Positions 3,931 to 60,385 of a stretch of 64,000 bases of DNA are shown here, one piece after another; position 1 is the stretch's first letter, and every line of letters starts with the position of its first letter. Below the pieces are notes generated by a model. That model saw only the letters and a list, made by a program, of their open reading frames with translations. It had not been told where the DNA came from and did not search any database. Source of the stretch: a bacterium (GTDB lineage: Bacteria; RBG-13-61-14; DATKZS01); NCBI GenBank assembly GCA_963674965.2, contig CAXXFL010000006.1, forward strand, positions 640,001 through 704,000, in the 5' to 3' direction. A program made the position numbers and the translations under genes.

Positions 3931-4612
3931 TTGAAAAGCACGGTCGTTTCAGGCTAATAGGGTTATGCGAAAACAATCCTGAAGCCTGAAGGAGTCGACC
4001 GTGCTTGTAGAGAGTCTTGTACGAGAAACGCTTGGTGTCAAGGATCACAAGGTTAAGAGCGTCAGCGGAGACGCGGTGGGGCTTACGGTTCTCATGGATC
4101 GCAAGAAGCTTCGGAAGCTCACCTGCTCTTGTTGCGGCTCTCGATCTTGGGTTTACGACACGCTTGCCGAGAGGACCTGGCGTCATGTTCCGTTGTGGGG
4201 CATCCCCGTGACCATCGTTTACAGCCCGCGCCGGGTGAACTGCCCAAATTGCGGCGTCAAGGTCGAGCAGGTCCCGTGGGGGATGGGCAAAAGTCGGCTC
4301 TCCCTGCCGCTGATCATCGTGCTCGCCGCCTGGGCCAGGCTCCTGGCCGTCGGCGTCGTGGCCGACCTTTTCGGCTTGAGTTGGTCCACGGTGGGGGCGG
4401 CGGTCAAGCACGCGGTGGCTTACGGCCTCGAACACCGCGACGTTTCCGGCGTGCTTTACATCGGGATCGACGAGGTCTCTCGCAAAAAAGGCCGCGTCTA
4501 TCACACCCAGGTTTACGAGATCGGCAAGAGGCGGCGTCTTTTGTGGTCCGGAGAGGGGCGCAAGAAAGAGACGCTGGAACGTTTTTTCGATGAACTTGGC
4601 GAGGAGGGACGC
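3888..4612 (+). mobile_element. ISL3-family insertion sequence, left end plus 5' part of transposase (truncated, right end missing)
   Basis: Begins GGGTCTT (ISL3-type terminus) after AT-rich GAATTTAT. The ORF from GTG 4001 has CSCCG and CPNCG zinc-finger motifs, 'RTWRHVP', 'VEQVPW', an HTH and 'YIGIDE' (first D of DDE). Similarity stops after FFDELGEEG (~4612). Confidence 0.85.
3936..4006 (+). promoter_or_regulatory. RNA hairpin occluding the ISL3 transposase RBS and start codon
   Basis: AAGCACGGTCG (3936-3946) pairs with CGACCGTGCTT (3996-4006, containing the GTG start). TTCAGGCT (3948-3955) pairs with AGCCTGAA (3983-3990). The GGAG RBS lies between the two 3' arms. Confidence 0.7.
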
Positions 4613-4696
4613 GTGAAAAGTAACCCGTACCAGAAGGCGAGGCGGCGCATATCAGAGTTGAGCTTTTTCCCGTTGCCCACGAGAGGGAATAACAAG

Positions 4697-5092
4697 ATGA
4701 AGAAAAGGTATATCATCGCAACAATTATATTGGCGGTTTTGGCAACTTTAGTTTTTATCCTGCCTTTATTGCTTTTACGATATGATGATAATGAAGACGG
4801 CGTCACTGACCTGGTGATTTATACCGATGGCTTTTCCATAATAAAGCGAATGGATTTTGATGGCGACGGGATTTTCGACTACAAGGAATATAATTATCTG
4901 ACTGGCGGCCAAATAAAATATTTCCTTGTTCTGAATGAGAAATTTAACAACCTTACTATTACCCAGCACTATGTGGACGGCCAAGTCTGTAGTATCAAAT
5001 CTGGACAGAGATGCCCAAAAAGAAAAGTGAAATTGAGAAAAACTACATGGGAACTTGATTCGGAAATAATTTTCGGAACGGGACGTTGGTAA
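4697..5092 (+). CDS. Small AT-rich membrane-anchored hypothetical protein with DxDxDG-like motifs
   Basis: MKKRYII plus a hydrophobic helix, then DDNEDGVTD and DFDGDGIFD. It has its own ATG after GAGGG and is in frame with the upstream transposase fragment. Confidence 0.6.
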   Translation: MKKRYIIATIILAVLATLVFILPLLLLRYDDNEDGVTDLVIYTDGFSIIKRMDFDGDGIFDYKEYNYLTGGQIKYFLVLNEKFNNLTITQHYVDGQVCSIKSGQRCPKRKVKLRKTTWELDSEIIFGTGRW

Positions 5093-14618: not shown

Positions 14619-16421
14619 TTAATATAATGCTCCCCCATGTCGGCGGATAAGGTCGGCGGTCTGGTCTTTTTCAAGGTCCGGGACCATCTTGAGTGGAGTA
14701 TTAAGTTCATTATCTCCGGCGTTGACTTTTGCTCCACTGGATATAAGAAAAGCGGCAAGGTCCGTATCATCGATTAACGCCGCGTAATGCAGGGGAGTCT
14801 CTCCGCGTTTGTCCTTGGCGTTTACGTCGGCCCCTTTGGCGATTAATGCCTTGGCCGCTTCCACGTCCCCTTGCAAAGAGGCAACATGCAGAGGAGTCAA
14901 CCCACCATCATCGGCCGCGTTTACCCTGGCTCCTCTCTTGATGAGCATGGCCATTATTTCATGGCCGTTGGAGCCGCGCGCTTTGTGTAATGGCGTCTGG
15001 CCTCTATTGTTTTGCGCGTTCACGTCCGAGCCCCGTGATATGAGGAAATCAACCAATTCCGCGTTCCCAAAGTAAGCGGCCATATGGAGTAAAGTGTTTC
15101 CCGAGAGGTCTCGCGTCTTGATTCTTTTTGGAGAGCGCTCAATAAACTTCTTGACTTTGTTTGCCCTCCCCTTCGCAATTTCCGAAAAAACGCCGCCGCC
15201 GGCTCCAGCCGATTCAATAAGTTCAATTATATCATCGGCATAAGCGTCCGCCGCGATATCCATGGCGTCACTTCCATTATCGTTCTTGGCTTTAATATCC
15301 GCCCCATGTTCAATGAGGATTCTAACCACTTCTTTTCGACCCTCAAAATTGGTCAGATGGAAAGTGAATGACCGATGAATATAGATAAGGGGCGTGTCTC
15401 CATCATTATTTCTCGCGTTGATATCAGCCCCCGCTCTCAGAATGAGTTCCACCGCCGTCGGATGGCCCTCATTGGATGCCAGGTGTAATGGCCTGTTCCC
15501 ATCATTATCTTGAGCTTCGATTTCAGCGCCATTTCCTATTAATATTCTGACCACCTCGATATGCCCAAACATGGCGGCAATATGAAGTGGAGTCTCCCCT
15601 AATTCATTCTTTACGTCCAAATCGATATTATTGTTAATTAGAATTTTCGCGACGCGCGGCGCGTTACCCCATGCACACGCGTGCAGCGCGGTATTGCCCT
15701 TATTATCCTTGCGGTTAACGTCAGCTCCATGAGACAATAAATATCTCAATGATTCTAAATATCCATTATACGCCGCAATACCGAGAGCCGACGCCGCGTT
15801 TTCGCCATGAGGATTAACGCGGGCTCCATTGTCAATAAGGAACTTCATTATTGCCACGTGATTGTTTAGTACCGCCAGCGTCAAAGCTGTATGACCTCCT
15901 TTATCCGTCGCGTCGAGAAAAGCATCATTGTTTAGCAAGACTTTTACCGTGTCCAAATGCCCCATTTCGGACGCCAATTGCAGTGCCGTTTGACCAGTAT
16001 CGTTTTTCGCGTCAACCTCAGCCCCGTTTTCCAAAAGGAATCTGACTATGTCCGTCTGACCCGACCGCGCCGCTACTCCCAGCAAATTATTGCCGCTTTT
16101 ACAATCACCCTCATCCTTGAAGTTAATGAGTTCGGGGTGGTCTTTGGTAAGTTCTTTTGCAAGAGATGAATCTCCATCCTCGGCGGCTTGAATCATCATT
16201 TCCCCAAATCGTGAAAATTGTGATTTTGCGGCTTCTTGCAAGTAATCGGGCTTTGATTTATCCCTTCCCGTCAGCCGAGAAGCTCGATCACCTTTTTTTT
16301 CGGCGGCTTTTTCTTCAGGACCTTGAATTTTGCAGGATGAAGTCGCGATTAATGAAGAAGCCATTAGGAACATCGCGAAAAGGACTTTCATATTTGCCCC
16401 AATAATTGCTCTTTGGTCCAT
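14619..16421 (-). CDS. Ankyrin-repeat protein (~16 repeats), probable exported lipoprotein
   Basis: Repeated G.TPLH.A...G...V..LI..GA.VNA.D units and a hydrophobic N-terminus ending IATSSC. Start is uncertain (16421 or 16391). Visibly more AT-rich than its flanks. Confidence 0.9.
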   Translation of the reverse strand: MDQRAIIGANMKVLFAMFLMASSLIATSSCKIQGPEEKAAEKKGDRASRLTGRDKSKPDYLQEAAKSQFSRFGEMMIQAAEDGDSSLAKELTKDHPELINFKDEGDCKSGNNLLGVAARSGQTDIVRFLLENGAEVDAKNDTGQTALQLASEMGHLDTVKVLLNNDAFLDATDKGGHTALTLAVLNNHVAIMKFLIDNGARVNPHGENAASALGIAAYNGYLESLRYLLSHGADVNRKDNKGNTALHACAWGNAPRVAKILINNNIDLDVKNELGETPLHIAAMFGHIEVVRILIGNGAEIEAQDNDGNRPLHLASNEGHPTAVELILRAGADINARNNDGDTPLIYIHRSFTFHLTNFEGRKEVVRILIEHGADIKAKNDNGSDAMDIAADAYADDIIELIESAGAGGGVFSEIAKGRANKVKKFIERSPKRIKTRDLSGNTLLHMAAYFGNAELVDFLISRGSDVNAQNNRGQTPLHKARGSNGHEIMAMLIKRGARVNAADDGGLTPLHVASLQGDVEAAKALIAKGADVNAKDKRGETPLHYAALIDDTDLAAFLISSGAKVNAGDNELNTPLKMVPDLEKDQTADLIRRHGGALY

Positions 16422-16583
16422 CGTCAATGCTTTTCTCTCCATGAGATATAAAAAGTATCGACTAATACAAATGAAAAATGAATAAGCCATCCTACCCATC
16501 AACCGGAAATTCTAATTGTGAGTTCATATAGCCGTTAATTGTTCCAAGCTTACTGGATAACGAGAGGCAAACATATCGGCGAT

Positions 16584-20796: not shown

Positions 20797-21888
20797 ATGA
20801 AGAAACAAAAAGTCAGCAAGTATTTTTCTCTCGCGGCCCTGCTATTTTTGGCCGTAGTATTCTCGTCAGCCTGCGCGCCTCCGTTTTTCGTCAGTACCTC
20901 GGCTGAATCTCCCGTGGAAGTGGGACCCGGCGCGGCGTTTTTAGCCGGATTATTTGGCGACATGACCAGTAAGTATCAAGTTGACGGCACGATGAACCAA
21001 GGCGCGCAAAAAACGGGCGAAGATTTCTGCCTGTACATCGATATCGGAGGCAGCGGAGAGCGCGACCTATTGGTCTGGGACGGAACGGACTGGCAGAACG
21101 TGACCGACGACGACGACGCGGCTGAGGCCCTCGACGCGATCGTGGACAACGGATATATCCATTTCAAGCCCGACCTGGACCTCTCAAGCGTGTACATTTA
21201 CTGGGCCGATTACTCGACCTCGACTCCCGAACTCTGCATCGACGTCTCCGACATTGACGAGATCGCCGGCTACGAGGAAACCCTCTACACGGTCATAGTC
21301 GAAAGCAAGGACGCTAGCGACCATGATATCTGGAGAGTGGATACCGGCTCCAATAACTTTTACATGGCCCCGGATCGGAGGTTCTATTTCAGGGCCGGAA
21401 AAAACTCGGACACTTCCTTACCCGTGGTGAAAGACCTGAACTTCGAGTGCGACGACAGCGAAAGAGTAGATATAAATTTTTCCCCTCAAATCACCTTTGG
21501 CGAAACCATGGGAGCCCTGTACGCCTTTCTGGTGGATGAGAATGGAAAAGGTTTTACTCTCGCCAATTCAGGCCATTCGATTTCCAGCGGAGACCATACT
21601 TACTGGTGGGCCCTTCCCGCCGACAGAGATTTCAACCAGATACTGCTTGAATACGACACTCAATACAAGTTCGTCATTTGGGATAAAAACAACAGCACAA
21701 CCTTGGACCCGAGTCTCATTCCGCCAAACCTGCCGCTTTCCCAGGACATGAACGGGAACGTCATATACGATCAATACAACCTCCTCGAGGGCCCCATTGA
21801 TATTAACGACATTGATGGGCCGGAACACGACGATATCGGCATTCTCGTCTACTACCAGTGCTTCTATACTATAGAGGAGCCTGAGTAG
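20797..21888 (+). CDS. Acidic orphan lipoprotein of unknown function
   Basis: AAGGGGA RBS; signal peptide with lipobox FSSAC; Asp/Tyr-rich, beta-strand-like sequence with no family recognised. Confidence 0.75.
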   Translation: MKKQKVSKYFSLAALLFLAVVFSSACAPPFFVSTSAESPVEVGPGAAFLAGLFGDMTSKYQVDGTMNQGAQKTGEDFCLYIDIGGSGERDLLVWDGTDWQNVTDDDDAAEALDAIVDNGYIHFKPDLDLSSVYIYWADYSTSTPELCIDVSDIDEIAGYEETLYTVIVESKDASDHDIWRVDTGSNNFYMAPDRRFYFRAGKNSDTSLPVVKDLNFECDDSERVDINFSPQITFGETMGALYAFLVDENGKGFTLANSGHSISSGDHTYWWALPADRDFNQILLEYDTQYKFVIWDKNNSTTLDPSLIPPNLPLSQDMNGNVIYDQYNLLEGPIDINDIDGPEHDDIGILVYYQCFYTIEEPE

Positions 21889-21916: not shown

Positions 21917-21952
21917 GAAAGGGGCGGACCAAAGCGTTCGCCCCTTTCTTTC
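21917..21952 (+). terminator. Rho-independent terminator
   Basis: GAAAGGGGCGGA-loop-TTCGCCCCTTTC followed by a T-run, 28 nt after the lipoprotein stop. Confidence 0.75.
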
Positions 21953-22076: not shown

Positions 22077-23402
22077 ATGGCCCTGAGAAATATTTTCAAG
22101 AAGAAGAAAAAAAACGCTTCCTTTGTCATCGGGCTTGACGGGGTACCCCACACCCTGGTGCAAAGGTTCGTCAAGGACGGGACCTGGCCCTTCATGGCCA
22201 AACTGGCCGAGGCGGGCTCCCTCCATAAAATGAAGGTGACCCTGCCCGAGATAAGCGCCGTGAGCTGGCCCAGCTTCATGACCGGCTCCAACCCCGGCGT
22301 TCACGGTATCTTCGGTTTTACCGAGCTTGACGGCGGCTACGGCATGCGCTTTACCAACTTCACCGACCTCAAGGCGCCGACCATTTGGGACAAGCTGGGG
22401 GAGAGAGGCAAAAAGAGCGTCGTAATCAACCAGCCCGGCACCTATCCGGCCCGGGACATCCCCGGGGTCCTTATCAGCGGCTTCGTGGCCATCGAGCTTC
22501 ACAAGTCCTTGAAGCCCCTCAAATACCTGGCCCTTCTCCGCCGCTTGAACTACGAGATCGACATTGACACCCAAAGGTGCAGGCGCGACCACAACCAGTT
22601 GTTTATCGAGCTTAATAAAACCCTGACAAGCAGGAGGAAAGTCATCGAGGAGCTGTGGAAGTCCGAGGAATGGGACTTCTTCCAGGCCGTGGTCACGGGC
22701 ACGGACCGGCTCCAGCATTACATCTTCAGCGCCATCGAGGACCCGGGCCACGAAAGACACGGCCAAGTCATGGACTACTATCGCAAGATAGACGACTTTA
22801 TCAAGGAAAACTGGGAGAGGCACAACTCGACCATCGACGTCAGCCGGGAGGGCGAGGGCTTCTTCCTCCTTTCCGACCACGGGTTCTGCGCCATCAAGAC
22901 CGAGGTTTACTTAAACGCGTGGCTTAAAGAACAAGGATACCTGGCGTTCGAGAACGACGACCCCAAAAGCATGGAAGATATCACCGCCGACTCGAGGGCC
23001 TTTGTCCTGGACCCGGGCCGCATATACCTCCACCTGGAGGGAAAGTATCCCAAGGGAAACGTCAAGGGGTCCGAGGCCGGCCCTCTTCTTAAGGAGCTGA
23101 AAGAAAAACTCCTTTCCCTGTGCTACGATAATAACGGGATACTCGAGGACGTGAAGACCAGGGAGGAGGCCTATTCGGGACCGGAGGCCGCGAACGGTCC
23201 CGACCTCGTGTGCGTTCCCAACCACGGCTACGACCTTAAAGCGGCCGTCGGAGCCAAGGAGGTCTTTTTCAGGACCGACCTGACGGGCATGCACACCTGG
23301 GACGACGCCTTCTTCTGGGCCCTTGACGACCACGGCCAGGACATGGAAATAACCCGGCTGGCCAATATTGTTACGAAACCTCTTGGGGTGGGGGAACTCT
23401 AA
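22077..23402 (+). CDS. Alkaline-phosphatase superfamily (type I phosphodiesterase/NPP-like) protein 1, no signal peptide
   Basis: IGLDG, ISAVSWPSFMTGSNPGVHGIFGF (Ser nucleophile region), TDRLQH, LSDHGF and GMH. Start ATG 22077 after GGGAG. Confidence 0.9.
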   Translation: MALRNIFKKKKKNASFVIGLDGVPHTLVQRFVKDGTWPFMAKLAEAGSLHKMKVTLPEISAVSWPSFMTGSNPGVHGIFGFTELDGGYGMRFTNFTDLKAPTIWDKLGERGKKSVVINQPGTYPARDIPGVLISGFVAIELHKSLKPLKYLALLRRLNYEIDIDTQRCRRDHNQLFIELNKTLTSRRKVIEELWKSEEWDFFQAVVTGTDRLQHYIFSAIEDPGHERHGQVMDYYRKIDDFIKENWERHNSTIDVSREGEGFFLLSDHGFCAIKTEVYLNAWLKEQGYLAFENDDPKSMEDITADSRAFVLDPGRIYLHLEGKYPKGNVKGSEAGPLLKELKEKLLSLCYDNNGILEDVKTREEAYSGPEAANGPDLVCVPNHGYDLKAAVGAKEVFFRTDLTGMHTWDDAFFWALDDHGQDMEITRLANIVTKPLGVGEL

Positions 23403-23484
23403 AATACTAAGGACTTTAGCGAGAAAGCCTTGAGCCCTCTCGCGAGGAAGCTAATATCATTCGGCATTAATAGGGGAGATAGGT

Positions 23485-25719
23485 TTGCCTTCCAAATTCT
23501 TATTTTATAGGCCGAGATTTATCCTGGCCGCGCTGGTATTGCTAGCGGTCCTTTTCCAGGCCTCTTTGGCCGGCGCCTATATCGGACCAGGGGCCGGGTT
23601 TGCCGTGGTCGGGTCCTTCATGGCCTTTTTCTTTGCCTTTTTATCGGCCCTTCTTTCCATGCTGGTATGGCCGGCTCGGGCGCTTTACATTTTTATCCGG
23701 CGCAAACTTCTCAAGCTACGGCCCCAGGTCAAAAGGGTAATAGTCCTGGGCCTTGACGGCCTGGACCCCAGGACCGTGCATAAGATGTTCCAGGAAGACA
23801 AGCTGCCTAACCTGAAAAAGCTGAAAGAAGAAGGATACTTCAGGCCCCTGAAAAGCACGACCCCATCCATCTCCCCCGTGGCCTGGTCGACCTTCATGAC
23901 CGGAGTCAATCCGGGAAAGCACGCCATCTTCGACTTTTTGGCCCCGGACAGAAAAGCCTATCTCCCGGTCCTCAGTTCCTCCAAGATCGGCAACGTGGAA
24001 AGGACAGTGAAAATCGGCAAGTACGTCATCCCCCTGGGAAGCCCCGAGATAAGGCTCCTCAGAAAAAGCGCGCCCTTTTGGAAAATACTGGGGGACAACT
24101 TTATCTTCTCCCAGATTCTGAGGGTCCCCATTACCTTCCCGCCCGAGAAACATTACGGGACCAACCTGGCCGCCATGTGCGTGCCCGACCTTCGAGGCTC
24201 CCAGGGCAGCTTCACCTATTTCACCAGCGCCAAGGGCGAGAACGCCAGACATACCGGCGGCATCCAGGTCACCCTCGAGTCCGACGGCAACGGGGGCTTT
24301 GTCTGCGACCTGCCCGGCCCGGATAACCCTCTGGTTCCCGGCGTTGGCGAGATGAAGATTCCCCTCAAGCTGAAAAAGGAAAAGGACGACTGGAAGCTGA
24401 TCCTTCCCGACGCCGAGGTCGCCCTGGCCAAGGACAAATATACGGACTACGTCGATCTCACGTTCAAAGCGGGCCTGGGAGTGGCGGCCAGGGGCATCGG
24501 GCGCTTTCGGCTGCTGGCGACCGAGCCGGACCTCGAGCTGTACCTTACGCCCATCAACATCGATCCCAGAAGCCCGGCCATGCCCATATCTCATCCGTCC
24601 TTTTTCTCCAGCTATATCGCCAAGCTGCAAGGTCCCTACGCTACCCTGGGGCTCAACGAGGACACCTGGAGCCTGAACGAAAGGGTACTCGAGGAAGGCG
24701 CTTTCCTCGAACAGGTATGGGACATACATGAGGAACGGGAAAAGATGTTCCTCCGCGCCATCGACACCACCAGCAAGGGATGCGTGGTATGCGTGTTCGA
24801 CGCAACTGACCGCGTCCAGCATATGTTCATGCGCTACGAGCACCCGGACCACCCGGCCAACGCGGGCAAGGACACGCAAAAGTACAAGAACGCCATACCG
24901 GAGCTTTACGAAAGGGCCGACGAGCTGGTGGGCAAGGTCATGGCGAAAAGGAGAAAGGGCGACGTCCTGATCGTGATGAGCGATCACGGGTTTACCAGCT
25001 TCAAGCGGGGCATGAACCTTAACTCGTGGCTGTGGAAGGAAGGATACCTGGCCACCAGGGACGGAAAGCCCTCGGGCGAGCTTTACGAGAACGTGGACTG
25101 GGAAAATACGCGGGCCTACGCTCTGGGCCTGGCCGGAATGTTCCTCAACCTGAAAGGCCGGGAGGCCAGGGGCGTGGTGGAAAAGGACGAGGCCCAGGCC
25201 CTTAGGGCCGAGATAGCGGCCAAGCTCGAGGGGATCGAGGACAAGGAAGGCGGCGGCGTGGCCATCGAGAAGGTCCACCTGTCGGGCGACGCCTACTGGG
25301 GGCCCTACGCCGGGCAGGGGCCCGACCTGGTCCCCGGCTTCCGGCCGGGATGGCGGGTAAGCTGGGACGGGGCCATGGGCGTGGTCAACGACGTGGTCTT
25401 CGAGGACAACTTAAAGGCCTGGAGCGGCGACCACTGCGTGGACGAGAGGTTCGTGCCCGGAGTGCTCTTCTGCGACCGCGACCTCGAGTGCAAGACCCCC
25501 TGGATAGGGGACGTGGCCCCCACTATCCTCGAGTGGTTCGGAGTGCCCATCCCGGCCCATATGGACGGCAAGTCGCTTCTTCATCCTCGCCATGAAGAAA
25601 CAAAGTCCGACAGTATAAAAGAAAAAGCGGGGGAAAACCTCGAAATAAATCAAGACAACGGAGAAGACGCGCCCGCGGCCGCCATATCGAGCGCGTCAAT
25701 AAAAGACGAGGCCATCTAA
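23485..25719 (+). CDS. Alkaline-phosphatase superfamily protein 2, with signal peptide, AYIGPGAG motif and membrane anchor
   Basis: TTG start after GGGGAG; signal-like segment, AYIGPGAGF, a long hydrophobic stretch and a basic patch; then LGLDG, ISPVAWSTFMTG, DRVQH, MSDHGF and WSGDHC. Confidence 0.9.
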   Translation: MPSKFLFYRPRFILAALVLLAVLFQASLAGAYIGPGAGFAVVGSFMAFFFAFLSALLSMLVWPARALYIFIRRKLLKLRPQVKRVIVLGLDGLDPRTVHKMFQEDKLPNLKKLKEEGYFRPLKSTTPSISPVAWSTFMTGVNPGKHAIFDFLAPDRKAYLPVLSSSKIGNVERTVKIGKYVIPLGSPEIRLLRKSAPFWKILGDNFIFSQILRVPITFPPEKHYGTNLAAMCVPDLRGSQGSFTYFTSAKGENARHTGGIQVTLESDGNGGFVCDLPGPDNPLVPGVGEMKIPLKLKKEKDDWKLILPDAEVALAKDKYTDYVDLTFKAGLGVAARGIGRFRLLATEPDLELYLTPINIDPRSPAMPISHPSFFSSYIAKLQGPYATLGLNEDTWSLNERVLEEGAFLEQVWDIHEEREKMFLRAIDTTSKGCVVCVFDATDRVQHMFMRYEHPDHPANAGKDTQKYKNAIPELYERADELVGKVMAKRRKGDVLIVMSDHGFTSFKRGMNLNSWLWKEGYLATRDGKPSGELYENVDWENTRAYALGLAGMFLNLKGREARGVVEKDEAQALRAEIAAKLEGIEDKEGGGVAIEKVHLSGDAYWGPYAGQGPDLVPGFRPGWRVSWDGAMGVVNDVVFEDNLKAWSGDHCVDERFVPGVLFCDRDLECKTPWIGDVAPTILEWFGVPIPAHMDGKSLLHPRHEETKSDSIKEKAGENLEINQDNGEDAPAAAISSASIKDEAI

Positions 25720-25736
25720 TAAAAGAGGTATTTATC

Positions 25737-27803
25737 ATGTCCAATAAAAAAAGCTTCTCCTCATTTGGCCGCTTTATCCCGCCTCCGGCGTTCGTGATGG
25801 CAGGCCTTCTGCTGGCCCTGTCGCTGGTCGCCTCGTGCGGGACCAAGACCAAACCCACGGGCAAGAAGGTATTGATCGTGGGCATCGACGGCATGGACCC
25901 CCGCTTGGTGGACGAGTTCATGAGCCGTGGACTTCTGCCCAACTTCGAGAAGCTCATGAGCATGGGCGACTTTAAGCCCCTTACCAGCTCGATCCCGCCT
26001 CAAAGCCCCGTGGCCTGGGCCAACTTCATTACCGGCACCAACCCGGGAAAGCACGGAATATTCGATTTCATCCACAGGGACCCGGACACTTATATGCCCT
26101 ACCTCTCCACCAGCAAGACCGAGGGCGCCCCGGAGGACGACTCGATCGCGCTGGGAAAACGCGTGATCTGGCTAAAGGGAGGCGTGGCCGAGAACAAGGT
26201 CGCGGGCACGCCCTTCTGGGAATACCTGGCCGAGAACGGCATATGGGAGCGCGTGTTTAAGATACCCTCGAACTTCCCGCCCGCCGGGGGCGTGGGATGG
26301 TCCGGCTCGGGCATGGGCACTCCCGACATCCTTGGCACCTACGGCACCTTCACCTATTTCACCGACAACCCGCCCGAGCACCCGGACTCGATCGGCGGCG
26401 GCACCATCACTCCCGTGTACATGGTCGAGGAAAACGTGTTCAGGACCAAGTTCGTTGGTCCCACCAACACCTGGGCCCTCGACGAGAAAAGACCATATCT
26501 GGGAGGCGATAAAAGGAACTACGCCGACTCCGAGGTCCCCCTTACCATCTACGTGGACCCCGAGAACCCGGCCGTCAAGATCGAGTTCCAGGATAATGAG
26601 CTGGTCCTCAGTCAGGGCGAATGGAGCGGATGGCTACCCATCAAGTTCGACATGTTCCCCCCCTTCCTCGGCGCCAGGGGAATAGTCAGGTTCTACCTCA
26701 AAGAGGTCAGGCCCGACTTCAAGCTCTACGCCAGCCCCATTAACATGGACCCCCTCGAGCCACCCATGCCCGTCACCAACCCGCCCGAGTACGCGGTCGA
26801 GGTGGCCGAGAACTGCGGCTACTACTACACCCAGGGCATGCCCGAGGACACCAAGGCCAGGCAGGCGGACCTCGACATACTCAACGACGGAGAACTCTTC
26901 CAGCAGATGATGCTGATCCATGATGAAGATAAAAAGATATTCAAGTGGCACCTGGACCAGTTCAAGGACGGACTGCTCTATTATTATTTCGGCTCTCTCG
27001 ATCTTGGCACTCACATGTTCTGGCGGCTTCACGACCCGAGCCACCCGGCTTATGACCCCAAGTGGGCTAAAAAAATGGGGGACCCCGTCGAGAAGCTCTA
27101 CGTCATGATGGACAAGATCATAGGGACGGCCCTGGAGAGGACCGGACCCAACGACGTCCTGATAGTGATGAGCGATCACGGCTTCGCCTCCTGGGACAAG
27201 ACCTTCCAGGTCAACTCCTGGCTGCTCGAGAACGGATACCTTCGGCTCGAAAAGGGCGTGGACCGGGAAAAGGTCGCCTATTTCAGGGACCTCGATTCCG
27301 GCAAGTTCGGCGTCGACTGGTCCCGTACCATGGCCTACGGCATGGGAATCAACGGGGTGTACATAAACAAGCTGGGAAGAGAAGCCTACGGCGCCGTCTC
27401 GCCCGTCGAGTATCGAGAGTACGTGGACGAGATAGCCGAAAAACTCATGGACTACGTGGACCCGGCAACGGGAGAGAAGCCCATACTGGTGGCAGCCAAA
27501 AGCTACGAGACCTATAAGGGAGACGGCCTCGAACACGCGCCCGACATAGTACTGGGATTCAAACGCGGATACAGGGGTGGAGACGAGAGCGCCCTGGGCA
27601 AGTTCCCCAAGGAAATCGTAAGCCTAAATAAAAGCTCATGGTCGGGCGACCATTGCGTGGCCACCAGGGAAGTCCCGGGAATTATCGTGACCAACCAAAA
27701 GATAAGGAAACAAGACCCCGCCCTTATTGACGTGGGTCCCACGGTGCTGTCCATATTCGGGATTGAAAAACCCGCGCAAATGGACGGAGAGCCGCTTTTC
27801 TAA
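25737..27803 (+). CDS. Alkaline-phosphatase superfamily protein 3, lipoprotein
   Basis: Lipobox LVASC; VGIDGMD, QSPVAWANFITG, DLGTH, MSDHGF and WSGDHC. Confidence 0.9.
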   Translation: MSNKKSFSSFGRFIPPPAFVMAGLLLALSLVASCGTKTKPTGKKVLIVGIDGMDPRLVDEFMSRGLLPNFEKLMSMGDFKPLTSSIPPQSPVAWANFITGTNPGKHGIFDFIHRDPDTYMPYLSTSKTEGAPEDDSIALGKRVIWLKGGVAENKVAGTPFWEYLAENGIWERVFKIPSNFPPAGGVGWSGSGMGTPDILGTYGTFTYFTDNPPEHPDSIGGGTITPVYMVEENVFRTKFVGPTNTWALDEKRPYLGGDKRNYADSEVPLTIYVDPENPAVKIEFQDNELVLSQGEWSGWLPIKFDMFPPFLGARGIVRFYLKEVRPDFKLYASPINMDPLEPPMPVTNPPEYAVEVAENCGYYYTQGMPEDTKARQADLDILNDGELFQQMMLIHDEDKKIFKWHLDQFKDGLLYYYFGSLDLGTHMFWRLHDPSHPAYDPKWAKKMGDPVEKLYVMMDKIIGTALERTGPNDVLIVMSDHGFASWDKTFQVNSWLLENGYLRLEKGVDREKVAYFRDLDSGKFGVDWSRTMAYGMGINGVYINKLGREAYGAVSPVEYREYVDEIAEKLMDYVDPATGEKPILVAAKSYETYKGDGLEHAPDIVLGFKRGYRGGDESALGKFPKEIVSLNKSSWSGDHCVATREVPGIIVTNQKIRKQDPALIDVGPTVLSIFGIEKPAQMDGEPLF

Positions 27804-27827
27804 GGCGGGAACAAAGGGGAGGTATTA

Positions 27828-28013
27828 ATGCCTAAGGTAAAGATTTCCAAGGAGCTTTTCGCTCGGGTCAAGAAGTTCGCCGGCATGGCGGGCTACAGCT
27901 CGGTGGACGAGTTTGTCTCTCACGCCCTCGAGAAGGAAGTGAGCCAGCTCGAGGGGGCCGACTCGGAGGAAGAGATCAAGAAGAAGCTGCAAGGACTGGG
28001 TTATATTTCCTGA
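27828..28013 (+). CDS. Small ribbon-helix-helix (CopG-like) protein with C-terminal LxxLGY motif
   Basis: Strong GGGGAGGT RBS; VKISKELFARVK...GYSSVDEFVSHAL (RHH pattern) followed by EEEIKKKLQGLGYIS. Confidence 0.8.
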   Translation: MPKVKISKELFARVKKFAGMAGYSSVDEFVSHALEKEVSQLEGADSEEEIKKKLQGLGYIS

Positions 28014-28022
28014 GGTCACCAG

Positions 28023-28892
28023 ATGGTAAACCTTTACGTCATGATCAACCGGCTGATCGACTCCCTCATGGGTCCCCTCGAGGGAGTCAGCCCGATATGG
28101 CCCCTGGCCATCTGGTCCATTGTCGTGGGCGTCGTGGCCATGATTATTTACAAGTACACCTCCAAGCAGGACGGCATCAAGGACGCCAAGGACAAGATCA
28201 AGGGCCATTTCTACGAGGTCTGGCTCTATATCGACGACGCGCCGGTTATCGCCAAGGCCCAGCTCAAGGTCATGTTTAACGCCTTCCGGTACATGGCCTA
28301 CGCGGCCCCTCCCCTGGCCATCATGATCGTCCTGTTCTTTCCTCTTTTCGCCAACCTCGAGACCCGCTACGCCATGAAGCCGGTCCCCGTGGGTGACGAG
28401 ACCCTGGTCAAGCTGCGCCTGGCCCGGGAGTTCGACGGGTGGCAAAACCAGGTCAAGCTCGACCTTCCGCCCGGCGTCGAGCTGGTGGGAAACCCCGTCA
28501 GGTTTTCCCGCCGCGTGTTCGAGTCGGACTCGAGCAAAAAGGTCGTCCGCGTGGACCATGAGGTCAACTACAAGCTGAAGGCGACCGAACCGGGCCGCCA
28601 CGACCTGGCCTTTACGGTCAAGGGCAAATCCTTCACCGTGCCCTTCCTGGCCGGACCGGACTACGGCAAAAGGGCCACGCCCCTGGCGGCGACCACCAGC
28701 CTGGGAGAGGCCCTGCTTTTCCCGCCAACCGCCAAGGTCCCGGCCGAGGCCGACGTCGAGCGGGTCGAGATCAAGTACCCCGAGGCCGACTTCCCCTTCC
28801 TGGGATGGAACGCCTGGTGGATATGGCCGTTCCTTATAATCTCGATGATCGCGGCCTACGCCGTCAAGGGCGTCTTCAAGGTCGAGATATAA
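28023..28892 (+). CDS. EMC3/TMCO1 (DUF106)-like three-TM membrane protein with inserted soluble beta domain
   Basis: Amphipathic N-helix, TM1, charged coiled-coil (TSKQDGIKDAKDKIK), TM2 (PLAIMIVLFFPLF), a ~140-aa beta-rich loop, TM3 (WWIWPFLIISMIAAY) and a basic C-end. Confidence 0.65.
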   Translation: MVNLYVMINRLIDSLMGPLEGVSPIWPLAIWSIVVGVVAMIIYKYTSKQDGIKDAKDKIKGHFYEVWLYIDDAPVIAKAQLKVMFNAFRYMAYAAPPLAIMIVLFFPLFANLETRYAMKPVPVGDETLVKLRLAREFDGWQNQVKLDLPPGVELVGNPVRFSRRVFESDSSKKVVRVDHEVNYKLKATEPGRHDLAFTVKGKSFTVPFLAGPDYGKRATPLAATTSLGEALLFPPTAKVPAEADVERVEIKYPEADFPFLGWNAWWIWPFLIISMIAAYAVKGVFKVEI

Positions 28893-28928
28893 TTCGCCAA
28901 AGCCGGCGATAAGGCCCCTCGGACAAAA

Positions 28929-28965
28929 AAATCGCGCCCGGACCTTTTCCGCCCGGACGCGATTT
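28929..28965. terminator. Hairpin between convergent genes (probable bidirectional terminator)
   Basis: AAATCGCG-CCCGG...CCCGG-A-CGCGATTT, with an A-run on the left. Confidence 0.55.
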
Positions 28966-28979
28966 CGCGTTTTAAGATT

Positions 28980-53877: not shown

Positions 53878-54897
53878 TCAAATCCAGCCGGGCCTTCCGT
53901 AAGGAGACCGGCCCAGCAGGCGGCCCAATACTCCGGCGGCCGCGCCGGCGCATATGGCCAGCAGCCCGAGCGCGTAAAGGCCGAAGGCCGGGATCGATCT
54001 CCATCTAAGACGCGCGCGCAGAAGACGTCCCAGGCCGTGATTGAGATAAAAATATCCCATAAAGGCCGGCGCGAAAAGAACCGTCATTTCGGGCGCCCAT
54101 GGAATACACAGCAGGCAAGCCGCGAGAAGCGCGATGGACGCGGCGTTTTCCGCGCTTTTAAAGCTGGGCGCTCGCCTGGGCAGTCTTCCGGCCAGGGTCA
54201 GCTTCATGCCCAGGACGGCCTTTTTATAGTCGTTGGCCAGCATGCCGGCCAAGGAGAAGTGATGGGCGTGGGCGCCCTCGGCCGCGGGCAGGTATCGCAG
54301 ATCGTATCCCGCCTCGGACAGGGCCAGTCCCAGTTCCATGTCCTCGGCGCTGGCCCCCTGGTAGCGCTCGTCGAACCCGCCCACTTCGAGGAAGGCCTCC
54401 CGCCTGACCGCCCCCAGCGCCCCCCAGAACCAGTCTATCCTCTCGGGGGAGAGGTCGTGATGGTAGCGGGTGAAGGCGTTATGGTACTCGTTGATTATTC
54501 CCCTCGCCGCCGGCTTCTCCGAGTATCTTCCCACCACCCCGGCCACCTCGAGGTCCTCGTCCATGCGGCTTATAATGGACGCCAGCGCGTTGGGGTCGAG
54601 GAAAACGTCCGAGTCCACGAAAACCAGGACCGGCGCCGACGACTCTGCGACCCCCCTGTTCCTGGCGGCGGCGGCCCCGGAGTTTTTCTCCATAACCGCG
54701 AGCTTCACGAAGGGAAGTCGGGCCTTATCGGCGCCTCCGTCGGTGGAGGCGTCGTCCACCACGATCACCTCGAGGTCGCCCGGCTCGATTCCCCGCTGAT
54801 TTTCGATCGCCTCGAGGCACTTCCCGATCGAGTCGCCGGCGTTGTACATGGGCACGATCACGGCCAGCCTCGGCGTGTCCCGCTCGGCCGCGCTCAT
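53878..54897 (-). CDS. GT2 glycosyltransferase with C-terminal TM helices
   Basis: VIVPMYN, VVDDASTD, AAARNRG, FVDSD, GGFDE and AEDMELG. Confidence 0.93.
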   Translation of the reverse strand: MSAAERDTPRLAVIVPMYNAGDSIGKCLEAIENQRGIEPGDLEVIVVDDASTDGGADKARLPFVKLAVMEKNSGAAAARNRGVAESSAPVLVFVDSDVFLDPNALASIISRMDEDLEVAGVVGRYSEKPAARGIINEYHNAFTRYHHDLSPERIDWFWGALGAVRREAFLEVGGFDERYQGASAEDMELGLALSEAGYDLRYLPAAEGAHAHHFSLAGMLANDYKKAVLGMKLTLAGRLPRRAPSFKSAENAASIALLAACLLCIPWAPEMTVLFAPAFMGYFYLNHGLGRLLRARLRWRSIPAFGLYALGLLAICAGAAAGVLGRLLGRSPYGRPGWI

Positions 54898-56606
54898 TTT
54901 TGGCCTCCCACCAGCGCGGAGTCCTTCCTGTCCCTTTTGACGAGGACGACCATTTCCACGTCGTGCTCGGGGTCCAGGGCCACGTAGTAGCCTCGGTTGA
55001 AGTAATCCGGCTTATATCGAAAGACCACGTCATAGCCGGTCTCGCCGGCCATGATGGAGTCGGCCAGGGGCGCCAGCCAGTATTCTCCCGTCTCCTTGTC
55101 TACGATCCATCGCTCGTCGTAAATGGGAGCGGTCGCGGCGTCCTTGTATACTTTCCGAAAACCTCCCAGGGCCCAGGCGTCGATAATGATTACGTCCGGG
55201 TCGGTCTCGCCTATCAACTCCTCGGTGAAACTCTGGGGCCAGACCAGGCTTAGTCCCGGGACTCCCAGCGCCCGGGTCGGCTCGTGGACGGACATGAGGA
55301 GGACGCGGCTATCAGGCGCTACCCTCTTTTGTATCCATTCACCCAGCTTGTCGTGATGGGAATAGAACATGGACCAGTGGGCGTCCACGCGGAGGACGCT
55401 CCAGACAAGAAGCAAAACCGCGATAAAGGGACCGAGGGTCCTCACGGCCGGCCTGGGCGATATGGCCAGGTCGGAAACCAGTTCCACGGCCATGAGTATC
55501 CCGATGGGGACCATGTTGAGGAAAAGATAATAGGCGAAAGCCCCGCCCTTGGGACCGCCCGAGTGCGTAGCGAAGACATAGATGAAGATCGCAAAATTCA
55601 AGGCCAGGTAAAAGTCGGTGGGAAGCCTCTTTTTCACGTGGTTAATAAAACCGACTATGGCGGCCCAGAAAAGAGGCAAGCCAAAAACAAAGGGAAGCAC
55701 GATGGACCCGAGGTAGTAATATCGGTCCCGCCACCAGACGTGAGGGTCGGTGTGATAAAAGCTGTGAATTTCGGCCTGGCGATAAAGCCATCCCATGTTG
55801 ACCAGCGTGTCCTTGAACCTTATGAACGAGTATGGCGACCCGATAAAGGCGGCGGCGGCCATGATTATCAAGGCGAGGTAAATATGAGGTGACTTGATTA
55901 TCGAGAGATAGGACCGTTTTCCCTCCAGGCATTTGTATACGACCAGGGGCGTCAGGGTCACGCCCAGTTGGTAATTGTTTTTAGTCACCACGGAGAATCC
56001 CGCCATAAGAGCGGCCGCGGCCAGCCATCGTCCGCTTCCCTCGCGATGGTACATGACGGCGGAGTAATATCCCGCCGTCATCCAAAAGAGGTTCAGCGAG
56101 TCCACTTTGGCCATGGCCGACATGGAGACGTGCATGGTATTAAGGGTCAGGAGCAAAGTGGCGAAAAGGGCCCAGCGCCAGTTGAGGTAGAGCTTGAACA
56201 GGAGATGGGCGGCCGCCAGGGACGCCATGGCGAAGGCGAGAGATATCCAGCGGGTGAGGTTAATCGTCACCGGGCTGAGGGGATCGAGTCCTCGGAAGAA
56301 CTCGGGGACGACGGATATCCCGCTTTGCATGATTTGGCCCACGAGGCCGGGAATGGCCCAGATAATATAGAAGATCGCGTTGACGTAAAAACCCAACGCC
56401 GGGTAAAAGCCGTGGGCCGTGTCCATGGTGGGACCTGACAGCAGGTGAAGGGTCACGCTGGTGGCCCTCTTTTCATCCTCGAAAAGAAACCATGGAAGCA
56501 GGGCGTCCAGGTGGCGGAGGCGAAGTAAAAGGGCGACGGTAAGAACGGCCAGGAGCCCGAGGTACTCCAGCCTTTTCTCTCCCAGTCCCTCCTTTTCCAT
56601 CTTCAT
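54894..56606 (-). CDS. GT-C fold (PMT/ArnT-like) glycosyltransferase
   Basis: LLLRL after TM1, EDE, FYP, AKVD, VVTKNN and F.GSPY; multi-TM. Confidence 0.82.
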   Translation of the reverse strand: MKMEKEGLGEKRLEYLGLLAVLTVALLLRLRHLDALLPWFLFEDEKRATSVTLHLLSGPTMDTAHGFYPALGFYVNAIFYIIWAIPGLVGQIMQSGISVVPEFFRGLDPLSPVTINLTRWISLAFAMASLAAAHLLFKLYLNWRWALFATLLLTLNTMHVSMSAMAKVDSLNLFWMTAGYYSAVMYHREGSGRWLAAAALMAGFSVVTKNNYQLGVTLTPLVVYKCLEGKRSYLSIIKSPHIYLALIIMAAAAFIGSPYSFIRFKDTLVNMGWLYRQAEIHSFYHTDPHVWWRDRYYYLGSIVLPFVFGLPLFWAAIVGFINHVKKRLPTDFYLALNFAIFIYVFATHSGGPKGGAFAYYLFLNMVPIGILMAVELVSDLAISPRPAVRTLGPFIAVLLLVWSVLRVDAHWSMFYSHHDKLGEWIQKRVAPDSRVLLMSVHEPTRALGVPGLSLVWPQSFTEELIGETDPDVIIIDAWALGGFRKVYKDAATAPIYDERWIVDKETGEYWLAPLADSIMAGETGYDVVFRYKPDYFNRGYYVALDPEHDVEMVVLVKRDRKDSALVGGQK

Positions 56607-58009
56607 CACAGGAACTTGAGTCGGAAATGTTTCAGCCCGACCTTGACGAAGTCCATCGGCTTGGGCATGGTCGAGACGATCCTCCAGGCCCGTCTCGGGC
56701 TGCCGTAGAATTTCCAGTGCGCGGTCCGGTGCATCCTCTCGAGGGTCGCGTCGTCAACGGCCGAGAGGTTGGCCGTCACCTTCTGATAAGACGCGTCGTC
56801 GGGATCGAACTCGACTTCCTTTCCCGCCTCGGCCGCCATCCGGCTTACCTCGGTCCCCGGGAACGGGCTCAGGATGGCGAAGCCCGCCGTGTGAAGGTCG
56901 CTGGCCGCGGCGAAATCAATGGTCCGCCGCATCTCCTCCTCGGTCTCGGTGGGAAAGCCGAGCATGAAGAACCCGTGCGTGAATATCCCCCGGGAGGCGG
57001 TCCTCTCGATCCCGTCCTTTATGGCCTCGAGCGAGAGCCCCTTCCGGATCATCTTCTGTATCCGCTCGTCGCCGCTCTCGATCCCGAGGTTGACCTTGTA
57101 GACGCCGGCCTCCTTCATAAGGTCCAGAAGGCCGTCGGGCAGGCGGTCGCCCCTCATCCCGTTGGGGAAGGCCAGCTTGTAATCGAGTCCCTCCTCCATC
57201 ATGCCCGTGAGGATTTGCATGGCCCGCTCCGGCCGGCAGTTGAAGCAGTCGTCGATAACGTGCAACTCGCGTATGCCCAGCTCTCTTTGCAGGAACTTCA
57301 TTTCCTCGAGGACGTTTTCAACTGACCTTCCCCTGAACTTCTTGCCGAACATGTTATGGCAGAATATGCAGCGGAAGGGACAGGCGCGGGAGGTAAAGAT
57401 GGTCGTCACCTCCCGCCTGAAGGTGATGTCGTTCTGGTTGAGCATGACGTCGGTGAAGTACCGGCGCGGCTCGATGAGGTCCCAGGCCGGGAAAGGTATC
57501 TCGTCCAGGTCGGAAACGTACTCGCGCGGCGGGCCCAGGATCAGCTCTCCCTCCTTCATTACGGCGGTCCCGGGCACGCCCTCGAAACCCTTTTGGTCCA
57601 CCGCCCTGTCCACCAGGTCGACGAAGGTCAGCTCGCCCTCCCCCATGGCCGCCACGTCCACGTTCGCGTCGGACAGGGTCCAGCGGGGGGCCGCGCTCGG
57701 GTGAGGACCTCCGACCGCCACCGGGACCTTCCGGTCCCATGACTTGATCCGGGCGGCCAGGGCGTGCATGCACGAGGCCTGGAAGCTCATGGCGTGGATG
57801 GCCACCAGGTTCGGTTTGAAGTCCTCGAGTATCTCGTCTATGGCCGACGCCCGGGCCCTCTTTTCCATCATGTCGAAAAGGCGAAGCTCGTGCCCCGGCC
57901 TTCTCGAGCGCAAATAAGACGCTAGATACATGAGGCCATGAGGCGGATAACACTGGTAAACGAACCTCTCCGGCGCCGTCACGCCCGACTCGACCAGAAG
58001 TATCCGCAT
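56606..58009 (-). CDS. Cobalamin-binding radical SAM enzyme (class B methyltransferase-like)
   Basis: YPPHGLMYLAS, VGGPHPS, MGEGE, TSRACPFRCIFC, IDDCF, GIESG and FFMLGFPTET. Confidence 0.93.
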   Translation of the reverse strand: MRILLVESGVTAPERFVYQCYPPHGLMYLASYLRSRRPGHELRLFDMMEKRARASAIDEILEDFKPNLVAIHAMSFQASCMHALAARIKSWDRKVPVAVGGPHPSAAPRWTLSDANVDVAAMGEGELTFVDLVDRAVDQKGFEGVPGTAVMKEGELILGPPREYVSDLDEIPFPAWDLIEPRRYFTDVMLNQNDITFRREVTTIFTSRACPFRCIFCHNMFGKKFRGRSVENVLEEMKFLQRELGIRELHVIDDCFNCRPERAMQILTGMMEEGLDYKLAFPNGMRGDRLPDGLLDLMKEAGVYKVNLGIESGDERIQKMIRKGLSLEAIKDGIERTASRGIFTHGFFMLGFPTETEEEMRRTIDFAAASDLHTAGFAILSPFPGTEVSRMAAEAGKEVEFDPDDASYQKVTANLSAVDDATLERMHRTAHWKFYGSPRRAWRIVSTMPKPMDFVKVGLKHFRLKFL

Positions 58010-58010
58010 C

Positions 58011-60370: not shown

Positions 60371-60385
60371 TTCATTAACTCCGGG

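Follow-up and report, generated by a model that had tools for sequence, protein, structure and literature searches.

A widespread bacterial unit of NPP-clade AlkP-superfamily enzymes and an Oxa1-like membrane protein, joined in many genomes to sulfate activation genes

The unit described here consists of five co-oriented genes, designated g1 to g5, in a stretch of 64,000 nucleotides (contig CAXXFL010000006.1, positions 640,001 to 704,000; the whole stretch is called the window below) from the genome of a bacterium of the phylum RBG-13-61-14. The genes g1, g2 and g3 code for enzymes of the alkaline phosphatase (AlkP) superfamily, assigned to its nucleotide pyrophosphatase/phosphodiesterase (NPP) clade, g4 for a small ribbon-helix-helix (RHH)-like protein with a C-terminal tail, and g5 for a predicted membrane protein with three transmembrane (TM) helices and an Oxa1-like core. 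The unit is a real, widespread and uncharacterised system. What is new is that in other genomes it is joined to genes of sulfate activation, namely those for ATP sulfurylase (Sat) and for APS (adenosine 5'-phosphosulfate) kinase (CysC), which together make 3'-phosphoadenosine 5'-phosphosulfate (PAPS). The favoured reading, to which a probability of about one half is given, is a PAPS-dependent module that sulfates, and then processes, a membrane-associated envelope molecule, with NPP-clade enzymes in place of canonical sulfotransferases.

Conservation of the unit and its link to sulfate activation

The initial annotation, made from the window alone, took the five genes for a candidate undescribed envelope system, and their order has proved to be conserved across phyla, with g2-g3-g4-g5 kept in the bacterium's own phylum, in Planctomycetota and on metagenome contigs. 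In the own phylum g5 is found in 12 of 13 species genomes, and the order g2-g3-g4-g5 is kept in all ten loci with enough contig around them, two more being cut by contig ends; g1 adjoins these genes in six loci, lies at a distance of 1.7 kb in one and is located elsewhere in others. Among 401 sampled Planctomycetota genomes 57 are positive with the g4 profile, and 20 loci of this phylum contain g3-g4-g5 in every case and g2 in 19. The metagenome set comprised 80 contigs chosen by the g4 tail pattern. Here g5 lies right after g4 in 71 of the 72 loci with room downstream, the one miss being an ORF-calling overlap, an AlkP-superfamily gene lies directly before g4 in 67/67, and two large genes of this kind precede it in 34/40 (four of the misses are contig-cut, L088 has only g3 and L104 only g2), while g1 is present in 12/22. 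The unit also occurs in records labelled Acidobacteriota. Thus, g2-g3-g4-g5 is the invariant core, and the gene order is not due to chance.

The five genes are a conserved unit, as had been proposed, but they form only the distal half of a larger cluster, whose fullest form is g4'-ATP sulfurylase-g0-APS kinase-g1-g2-g3-g4-g5. Of the added genes, g0 codes for a further AlkP-superfamily enzyme and g4' for a second RHH-tail protein, a paralogue of g4 that ends in ...KLxNLGYL, has a longer acidic linker and heads the string of Sat, sulfatase-like and CysC genes (in 12/21 loci of Planctomycetota, e.g. L066 1403-1699 and L059 1320-1604, and in 4/18 of the long loci from metagenomes). In Planctomycetota g2 is preceded, on its own strand, by g4', a gene for ATP sulfurylase (PF01747 with PUA_2), a gene for a 315-aa protein of the sulfatase family (PF00884) and the APS kinase gene (PF01583). 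APS kinase is present in 18 of the 21 loci, mostly directly upstream of g2 and on the same strand, and the sulfatase-like gene in 14; Sat is co-oriented in 11, and in three more a bifunctional form is encoded on the other strand. The complete string from g4' to g5 is found in the metagenome loci L085/L086 and L138, whereas L135 is without Sat only and L104 without g3.

Two further genes are seen at the Planctomycetota loci: a small gene for a RelA/SpoT-type HD hydrolase domain (PF13328) directly after g5 in 8/21 (e.g. L066 10149-10697), and a CysQ-like gene of the inositol-monophosphatase family nearby in 6/21. The products of both could serve the disposal of 3'-phosphoadenosine 5'-phosphate (PAP).

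In the present genome g0 adjoins the APS kinase gene on another contig (C7:89698-91695; locus L080 5699-7699). Beside this pair, and divergent from it, lie both a GT2 gene (DPM-synthase-like) and a gene for a 610-aa membrane protein without a Pfam match, and a gene of the acetoacetate-decarboxylase family follows. Within the phylum the g0-CysC pair is adjacent in 11 of 12 inspected genomes, and in nine of ten when counted over further genomes, with Sat preceding it in four, and it is joined to g1-g2 in genome G002 and to the whole of g1-g5 in genome G001. Relatives of g0, alone among the paralogues, also give a weak match to PF00884, with E values of 7e-8 and 2e-5; g1-g3 do not match this family. 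APS kinase is encoded in 13/13 genomes of the own phylum, and in 57/57 g4-positive Planctomycetota genomes versus 220/344 g4-negative ones; for this co-occurrence the lists were compared by hand, and the genomes include related, hence not independent, and many incomplete ones.

The ATP sulfurylase gene of this genome lies elsewhere (C6:1043000-1051185; locus L171), adjoining genes for AprB (PF12139), an AprA-like flavoprotein and Qmo-like oxidoreductases, so the bacterium resembles a dissimilatory sulfate reducer or, if the pathway runs in reverse, a sulfur oxidiser. Since Sat stands beside the APS reductase genes, the separate APS kinase more likely supplies a sulfate donor than serves assimilation. 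No canonical sulfotransferase domain was found by Pfam scans of g1-g5, of the ORFs from g4' to g5 in L066 and L059, or of the other genes of the window. The initial annotation had left the group handled by the enzymes as phospho- or sulfo-linked; the physical joining of the unit to ATP sulfurylase and APS kinase genes in many genomes favours the latter.

Enzymes and partner proteins of the unit

The placing of g1, g2 and g3 in the AlkP superfamily is borne out by PF01663, which matches all three far above its cut-off of 23 bits (g1, E 2e-37, 130 bits; g2, 8e-31, 108 bits; g3, 2e-31, 110 bits). The fourth paralogue, g0, is 460 aa long, scores 152 bits against the same family and has threonine as the nucleophile. 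With NCBIfam the enzymes give only matches far below cut-off, e.g. to PhnA. The catalytic motifs that had been noticed in the three window paralogues are indeed common to them: the metal-binding Asp of G[LI]DG, the Ser in S-[PA]-V-[AS]-W, D-x-x-x-H, SDHG and the final His. When g0-g3 from two phyla are aligned, the Asp of G[LI]D[GC], the nucleophile (Ser, but Thr in g0), D-x-x-x-H, SDHG and the final His are retained throughout, and in g2 the residues D91, S130, D439, H446, D500, H501 and H650 are invariant in 22/22 sequences. The enzymes g2 and g3 are 35% identical over about 650 residues (tblastn) and have in common a beta-rich insert of about 230 residues, which g1 does not have; an Atlas search with the g2 insert returned only fragments of the same family. 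In a quick maximum-likelihood tree of 43 sequences, rooted at the midpoint, g0, g1, g2 and g3 each occupy one side of a branch, with support of 100, 100, 92 and 99, respectively; g2 and g3 are sisters, as are g0 and g1, and each paralogue group spans phyla. With the catalytic set kept in all four groups, the enzymes look active and specialised.

An AlphaFold2 (AF2) model of g2 has a predicted local distance difference test score (pLDDT) of 71 and a predicted template-modelling score (pTM) of 0.73. Foldseek gives 55 matches to it at E<=1e-3, headed by PafA, Xanthomonas (Xac) NPP and ENPP1 (E ~1e-6), and in the VIA structure comparison the best are ENPP5 (Z 20.7, 303 residues aligned, root-mean-square deviation (rmsd) 4.0), ENPP7 and ENPP6 (both 20.6) and Xac NPP (20.4), each over about 300 residues at 13-17% identity. 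In sequence, phmmer against all Protein Data Bank (PDB) sequences finds only PhnA for g1 (E 2.2e-4) and no match for g2; no characterised member of the NPP family is close to either by sequence. With the NPP/ENPP family (Xanthomonas NPP, ENPP1-7, PafA, SPAP, PhnA) the enzymes thus share the fold, the bimetal site and a hydroxyl nucleophile, but the identity is only 11-17%, this nucleophile is Ser in g1-g3 instead of Thr, g2 and g3 carry the insert of about 230 residues, and the bacterial unit has a predicted cytoplasm-facing membrane-anchored form and a linkage to PAPS synthesis. A reading of the unit as a defence system (PglZ-like) was dropped after PADLOC matched 0/5 of its proteins and found no defence or toxin family.

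The three window enzymes had been described as differing in targeting, and all three assignments have held up. No hydrophobic segment was found in g1, in keeping with a protein without a signal. In g2 two hydrophobic segments surround AYIGPGAG and are followed by eight Lys or Arg within 23 residues (62-84); this layout of a signal peptide, small residues at -1 and -3, Y[IVL]GPG, a TM helix and a basic patch is kept in all 57 homologues inspected (30/30 from genome loci and 27/27 full-length ones from metagenomes). Positive charges flanking a TM helix mark its cytoplasmic side (the positive-inside rule), and the catalytic domain of g2 is therefore predicted to lie in the cytoplasm, while mature g2, if the signal peptide is cleaved, would begin with an invariant Tyr at the outer surface. 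In g3 the lipobox LVASC, with Cys34, comes after a hydrophobic stretch, and at every homologue N-terminus inspected there is an export signal of some kind, be it a lipobox, a signal of the Tat type (RRGFIK, NRREFLK) or of the Sec type, or an N-in signal anchor, so that g3 is expected to be exported throughout. The sister enzymes g2 and g3 would thus work on opposite faces of the membrane, as judged from these features and their conservation.

The N-terminus of g2 resembles M13 procoat, a substrate of YidC, and hairpins of this type are handled by Oxa1-family insertases. Both have a signal peptide, a very short outer loop, a second TM helix and positive charges at both cytoplasmic ends; in g2, however, the loop is only about eight residues long and contains the invariant YIGPGAG, and the passenger is a predicted cytoplasmic enzyme of 660 residues.

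For g5 neither Pfam nor NCBIfam gives a match. Its AF2 model (pLDDT 88, pTM 0.79) comprises an N-terminal helix, TM1 (residues 25-46), a helical hairpin of 49-68 and of a second arm running from 73 into TM2 (to 116), and TM3 (267-285). An Ig-like beta-sandwich of about 150 aa (approximately 120-264) fills the TM2-TM3 loop on the predicted outer side, and a cytoplasmic coiled coil is predicted between TM1 and TM2, with eight Lys or Arg in the loop 47-89. The earlier impression of an Oxa1-superfamily-like protein gained ground with a profile of 32 homologues from two phyla, whose first match among all PDB sequences is the archaeal DUF106 protein MJ0480 (5c8j), at E 3.4e-4 as against 0.018 with 16 homologues. 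The match is collinear, residues 7-122 aligning with 8-127 over TM1, the coiled coil and TM2, and there is a weak second stretch on TM3. In a profile search the insert resembles filamin-type Ig domains (E 0.012). Among the 48,161 chains compared by VIA the best for g5 is chain 8 of the multipass-translocon entry 7tut, which may be TMCO1 (Z 10.8, rmsd 4.6, 136 residues aligned), followed by a next row at 8.3, and YidC (3wo7) reaches 7.0, values of a kind that helical models often attain. Foldseek returned only weak Ig-like matches for the model (E>1e-3). In the language-model Atlas g5 groups, at scores of 0.94-0.95, with unnamed clusters of Aminicenantota, Acidobacteriota and Planctomycetota, and at rank 8 (0.88) with a cluster of which 17% of the members carry PF01956, which is taken as a lead only. 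From these data we conclude that g5 has a predicted core of the DUF106/Oxa1 type and stands outside PF01956 as now defined.

The gene is single-copy in this genome. Word-index searches retrieved 31 and 80 relatives, numbers that understate the family, as g4 has at least 7977 clusters. In the own-phylum genome G010 (contig C151; L018/L019/L024) the g5 match is split into two parts, at profile positions 6-167 and 171-288, possibly by a frameshift or an assembly error. Three TM helices and a cytoplasmic coiled coil between TM1 and TM2, as seen in the g5 model, are also features of DUF106/Ylp1 (MJ0480), EMC3, TMCO1 and YidC. The differences are that g5 is bacterial, carries the 150-residue Ig-like domain in the outer loop, and always belongs to one specialised operon instead of having a housekeeping place. 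The DUF106 group has been described as archaeal and eukaryotic (PMC5868721).

The g4 family is large. Among 1.84 billion representatives it forms 346 clusters at E<=1e-3, mostly of 60-68 aa; the 90% collection yields at least 7977 at E<=1e-8, a lower bound set by the 8000 candidates that were scored, and the named records come from Acidobacteriota. The RHH-like character ascribed to g4 finds support in its family, the N-terminal 45 residues of whose members fit RHH families, although the window copy taken by itself matches no RHH family at E<=0.01. Of 41 family members examined, 13 match RHH_1 (PF01402; best E 7e-5) and 10 match DUF7557, and antitoxin-type families are represented by PSK_trans_fac (7), FitA-like (4), TacA1 (1) and VAPB (1); the family profile finds NikR chains in the PDB, weakly (E 0.09-0.26). 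In the tail, ...RLxGLGY[IL]x, G58 is invariant, and L54, G56, L57 and Y59 each reach at least 90% conservation. Its L-x-x-x-G-Y-[IL] has the same spacing as the invariant N.WL...GYL element found just after SDHG in g0-g3, which in g2 comprises L516, G520, Y521 and L522 (residues 511-522, window about 25015-25050). The likeness may reflect mimicry or a shared docking surface, and hints at a docking rule common to the tail and the enzymes.

The design of an RHH-like part followed by a tail suggests a partner-binding regulator. A short C-terminal extension after an RHH-like N-terminus is also known from RHH regulators and antitoxins (CopG/RHH_1, NikR, VapB/FitA-type), but the L-x-x-x-G-Y-[IL] tail at the very C-terminus is specific to the g4 family and g4', and the gene, instead of heading the operon, is placed between g3 and g5. 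A complex prediction of g5 with two copies of g4 gave scores of 0.00 and 0.10 against a mark of 0.32, which speaks neither for nor against binding. Apparent fusions of g4 to larger proteins (P0034, P0157, P0121, P0044, P0036) mostly contain the full start motif of g4 inside a linker resembling translated spacer, and open frames of about 800 aa over g4 in Planctomycetota are out-of-frame overlaps with the g3 ORF in GC-rich DNA; P0157, of 817 aa and with cluster mates of 750 aa, is ambiguous. As such cases are mostly read-through or out-of-frame overlap, no Rosetta-stone fusion is claimed.

Proposed function and competing explanations

The favoured sulfation module could work as follows. ATP sulfurylase and APS kinase would make PAPS, their link to the module being drawn from gene order. 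The soluble g0 and g1 and the membrane-anchored g2 would act at the inner face, probably through a covalent sulfo- or phospho-Ser/Thr intermediate, as is usual in the superfamily, and the product would then reach the outer face, where paralogy and topology suggest that a group of the same kind is handled by the exported sister g3. The candidate acceptor is a lipid or a lipid-linked glycan; this, like sulfate as the group handled, is what we infer. The role of g5 could be that of a dedicated insertase or holder of the procoat-like g2 hairpin, or that of a bridge or passage between the faces, with its cytoplasmic coiled coil on one side and its outer Ig-like domain on the other. The tail of g4 would dock on a partner, as in RHH antitoxins and regulators, and so couple the unit to regulation or assembly. 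If this is true, sulfation in large, mostly uncultured phyla (Acidobacteriota-labelled, Planctomycetota and the own, sulfate-reducer-like phylum) runs on AlkP-fold enzymes, and surveys that count canonical sulfotransferases miss it. A DUF106-type protein next to its likely client or partner would also be a simple system in which to ask about roles of this group beyond general insertion.

The initial annotation knew of no characterised pathway with this gene set. None was found for the bacterial genes in the literature searched either, but AlkP-superfamily sulfotransferases of archaea, Agl30 and Agl31, were published in 2025 (PMC11980604). According to that paper (Zaretsky et al., mBio 2025; PMC11980604), Halobacterium salinarum requires the membrane-bound Agl30 (VNG1056C) and the soluble Agl31 (VNG1057C) for sulfating its N-linked tetrasaccharide, the two suffice for this in a heterologous host, and the glycan is built on dolichol phosphate. 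As far as that text goes, the parallels are several: one AlkP-superfamily sulfotransferase is soluble and one membrane-anchored by an N-terminal TM helix, as g0/g1 and g2 appear to be; the substrate is a lipid-carried glycan; a third AlkP-superfamily gene lies in the cluster; and a sulfated product is established there, while here Sat and/or CysC stand in one string with the unit. The two systems also differ. Compared by description, Agl30 and Agl31 are archaeal and find their best structural matches among sulfatases (PF00884-type), whereas g1-g3 are bacterial and of the PF01663/NPP clade, and the exported sister, the RHH-tail protein and the DUF106-type partner belong to the bacterial unit and are not mentioned for Agl30/Agl31 in the part of the paper available. 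Nothing was found on the bacterial unit, on PAPS-linked NPP-clade enzymes or on a bacterial DUF106 relative in a literature search that had most subscription journals and supplements outside its reach.

Several observations weigh against a PAPS-dependent sulfation module. In the window no PAPS gene is adjacent to the unit, and APS kinase is found in only 7/18 of those metagenome loci that extend at least 9 kb upstream. The enzyme is common in Planctomycetota anyway (277/401), which bears on its co-occurrence with g4. PAPS is absent outside the cytoplasm, where g3 would act, so the pair of an inside and an outside enzyme raises the question of how sulfate, or a related group, is handled there. 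As to clade, g1-g3 fall in the NPP one, of which the known members are hydrolases of phosphodiesters and pyrophosphates, and not in the sulfatase-like clade of Agl30/Agl31. Neither does PF01956, the family by which the Oxa1-like nature of g5 was expected to be recognised, support the identity of that protein: it matches 0/37 g5 homologues (0/16 of the own-phylum type at E up to 10 and 0/21 from Planctomycetota at E up to 1), and a six-frame search of the genome with it found nothing at g5. Finally, the available text of the Agl30/Agl31 paper nowhere names the sulfate donor, with 0 matches for PAPS or phosphoadenosine (PMC11980604).

The strongest rival, in itself rather unlikely, is that the enzymes are plain hydrolases of the NPP type, which would clear or recycle PAP, PAPS, APS or pyrophosphate within the cell, or cleave phosphodiester head groups of lipids or polymers at both faces of the membrane, with no transfer involved and with g4 as the repressor of the operon. 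The nearest solved folds belong without exception to hydrolases (ENPP5, ENPP6, ENPP7, Xac NPP, autotaxin, PafA, PhnA), the bimetal site is complete, lipid head groups are what ENPP6, ENPP7 and autotaxin act on according to the titles of their entries, and g4 does resemble RHH regulators. Yet four ancient and separately conserved paralogue groups would seem to exceed the needs of housekeeping hydrolysis, as would an inside/outside pair kept without exception and an Oxa1-like protein devoted to the unit; PAP could already be cleared by the products of the CysQ-like (6/21) and HD-domain (8/21) genes of the Planctomycetota loci; and the PAPS for which the cluster codes would have no other candidate user within it. 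The second rival, which had been the first choice of the initial annotation and which we hold to be improbable, retains transfer but changes the group: a phosphoethanolamine-, phosphocholine- or phosphoglycerol-like substituent would be placed on envelope acceptors, and the PAPS genes would belong to a separate pathway. It fits the Ser nucleophile of AlkP-superfamily enzymes, the binding of phosphocholine and lipids by the NPP-clade relatives ENPP6 and ENPP7, and a window without a PAPS gene beside the unit. It does not account for the repeated presence of the unit in one co-oriented string with Sat and CysC in three lineages, nor for g0 or the sulfatase-like protein wedged between these two genes. 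EptA, LtaS and OpgB are outer-face transferases of the AlkP superfamily that take their group from a membrane lipid, and they show that an exported AlkP-fold enzyme like g3 can transfer through a lipid-linked donor and without a nucleotide donor. They are, however, PF00884 proteins with multi-TM anchors that carry phospho-substituents, and their domains lie outside only, whereas in the present unit one sister is predicted to face inward.

The least likely alternative, and a very improbable one, is that g4 and g5 are not partners of the enzymes at all, g5 being a general second insertase and g4 a stand-alone, antitoxin-like regulator that hitch-hikes. Oxa1-family proteins are general insertases, and some g4 members do match antitoxin-type RHH families. 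Such a history is hard to reconcile with the place of g4, directly before g5 in 71/72 and directly after an AlkP-superfamily gene in 67/67 metagenome loci, with a g5 that is single-copy here and found only in the context of the unit, and with the PADLOC result (0/5 proteins in a defence or toxin family). The favoured sulfation module can also be extended to a relay of sulfate across the membrane, in which g0, g1 and g2 would load sulfate from PAPS on a membrane carrier (a lipid or lipid phosphate), g5 would pass the head group and g3 would transfer it to envelope acceptors through a covalent intermediate. This version, close to the relay put forward initially, is doubtful. Relatives of g5 thin the bilayer and have a hydrophilic groove, and one of them, YidC, has been described as a lipid scramblase (PMC11997395). 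If the relay were true, it would be a sulfate counterpart of the periplasmic chemistry that uses undecaprenyl-phosphate-sugar and phospholipid donors, and it would give a bacterial branch of the Oxa1 superfamily a function other than insertion.

The locus in the window and its surroundings

The features of the locus are listed in Table 1. The ORF coordinates agree exactly with the five co-oriented genes and the intergenic gaps of 82, 17, 24 and 9 nucleotides given initially. The two hairpins named as boundaries fared differently. The RNA fold of the upstream one is strong (-23.9 kcal/mol, z -5.05, 0/200 shuffles as stable) and is followed by UUUCUUU. In the downstream one the stable fold is that of the minus strand (-29.8 kcal/mol, z -4.15, with U7 after it), as against a weak one on the plus strand (-17.6 kcal/mol, z -1.0), so that it belongs primarily to the convergent RDD gene as its terminator. 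A consensus terminator scan found 12 sites versus 11.3 expected from shuffles, i.e. no excess, so the boundaries of the unit rest on the RNA folds. The upstream DNA of g1 gave no alignment among five loci, and hence no operator is proposed.

Table 1. Features of the unit and its boundaries in the window
Feature	Position	Strand	Description
Intrinsic-terminator hairpin	21917-21948	+	Upstream boundary; ends lipoprotein-like gene 20797-21888
g1	22077-23402	+	441 aa; NPP-clade AlkP-superfamily enzyme, polybasic N-terminus, predicted cytoplasmic
g2	23485-25719	+	744 aa; TTG start; membrane-anchored NPP-clade enzyme, catalytic domain predicted cytoplasm-facing
g2, residues 1-84	23485-23736	+	Predicted Sec-type signal peptide 1-31 (ends A-G-A), YIGPGAGF 32-39, TM helix of about 25 residues, basic stretch 62-84
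g3	25737-27803	+	688 aa; predicted exported sister of g2, here a predicted lipoprotein; lipobox LVASC at nt 25824-25838, Cys34
g4	27828-28013	+	61 aa; ribbon-helix-helix-like, acidic linker, C-terminal tail ...RLxGLGY[IL]x
g5	28023-28892	+	289 aa; predicted three-TM protein, DUF106/Ylp1-like (Oxa1 superfamily) core, Ig-like insert
Hairpin between convergent g5 and RDD genes	28928-28966	.	Downstream boundary

The genes flanking the unit in the window (for MFS, lipoprotein, RDD, PMT_2 and GH20 proteins) are not kept beside it elsewhere, bar one weak PMT_2 match, and are therefore not regarded as part of it. Farther along the window, at 54894-63153 on the minus strand, one string comprises a second PMT_2-like glycosyltransferase gene of the GT-C type and genes for two B12-binding radical SAM enzymes, a methyltransferase, a flavoprotein of the amine-oxidase type and a 425-aa protein without a Pfam match; it may be a cluster for lipid or glycan modification. 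At 14619-16502 the minus strand codes for a 627-aa protein that consists of ankyrin repeats over nearly its whole length (Ank_2, 445 bits), which is unusual in bacteria. An ORF resembling ISL3-family transposases lies at 4001-5092 on the plus strand, in a region of lower G+C content, and beside it are genes for sulphur transport (PF04143), a protein of the low-molecular-weight phosphotyrosine phosphatase family, a bile/arsenite-type SBF transporter and a methyltransferase.

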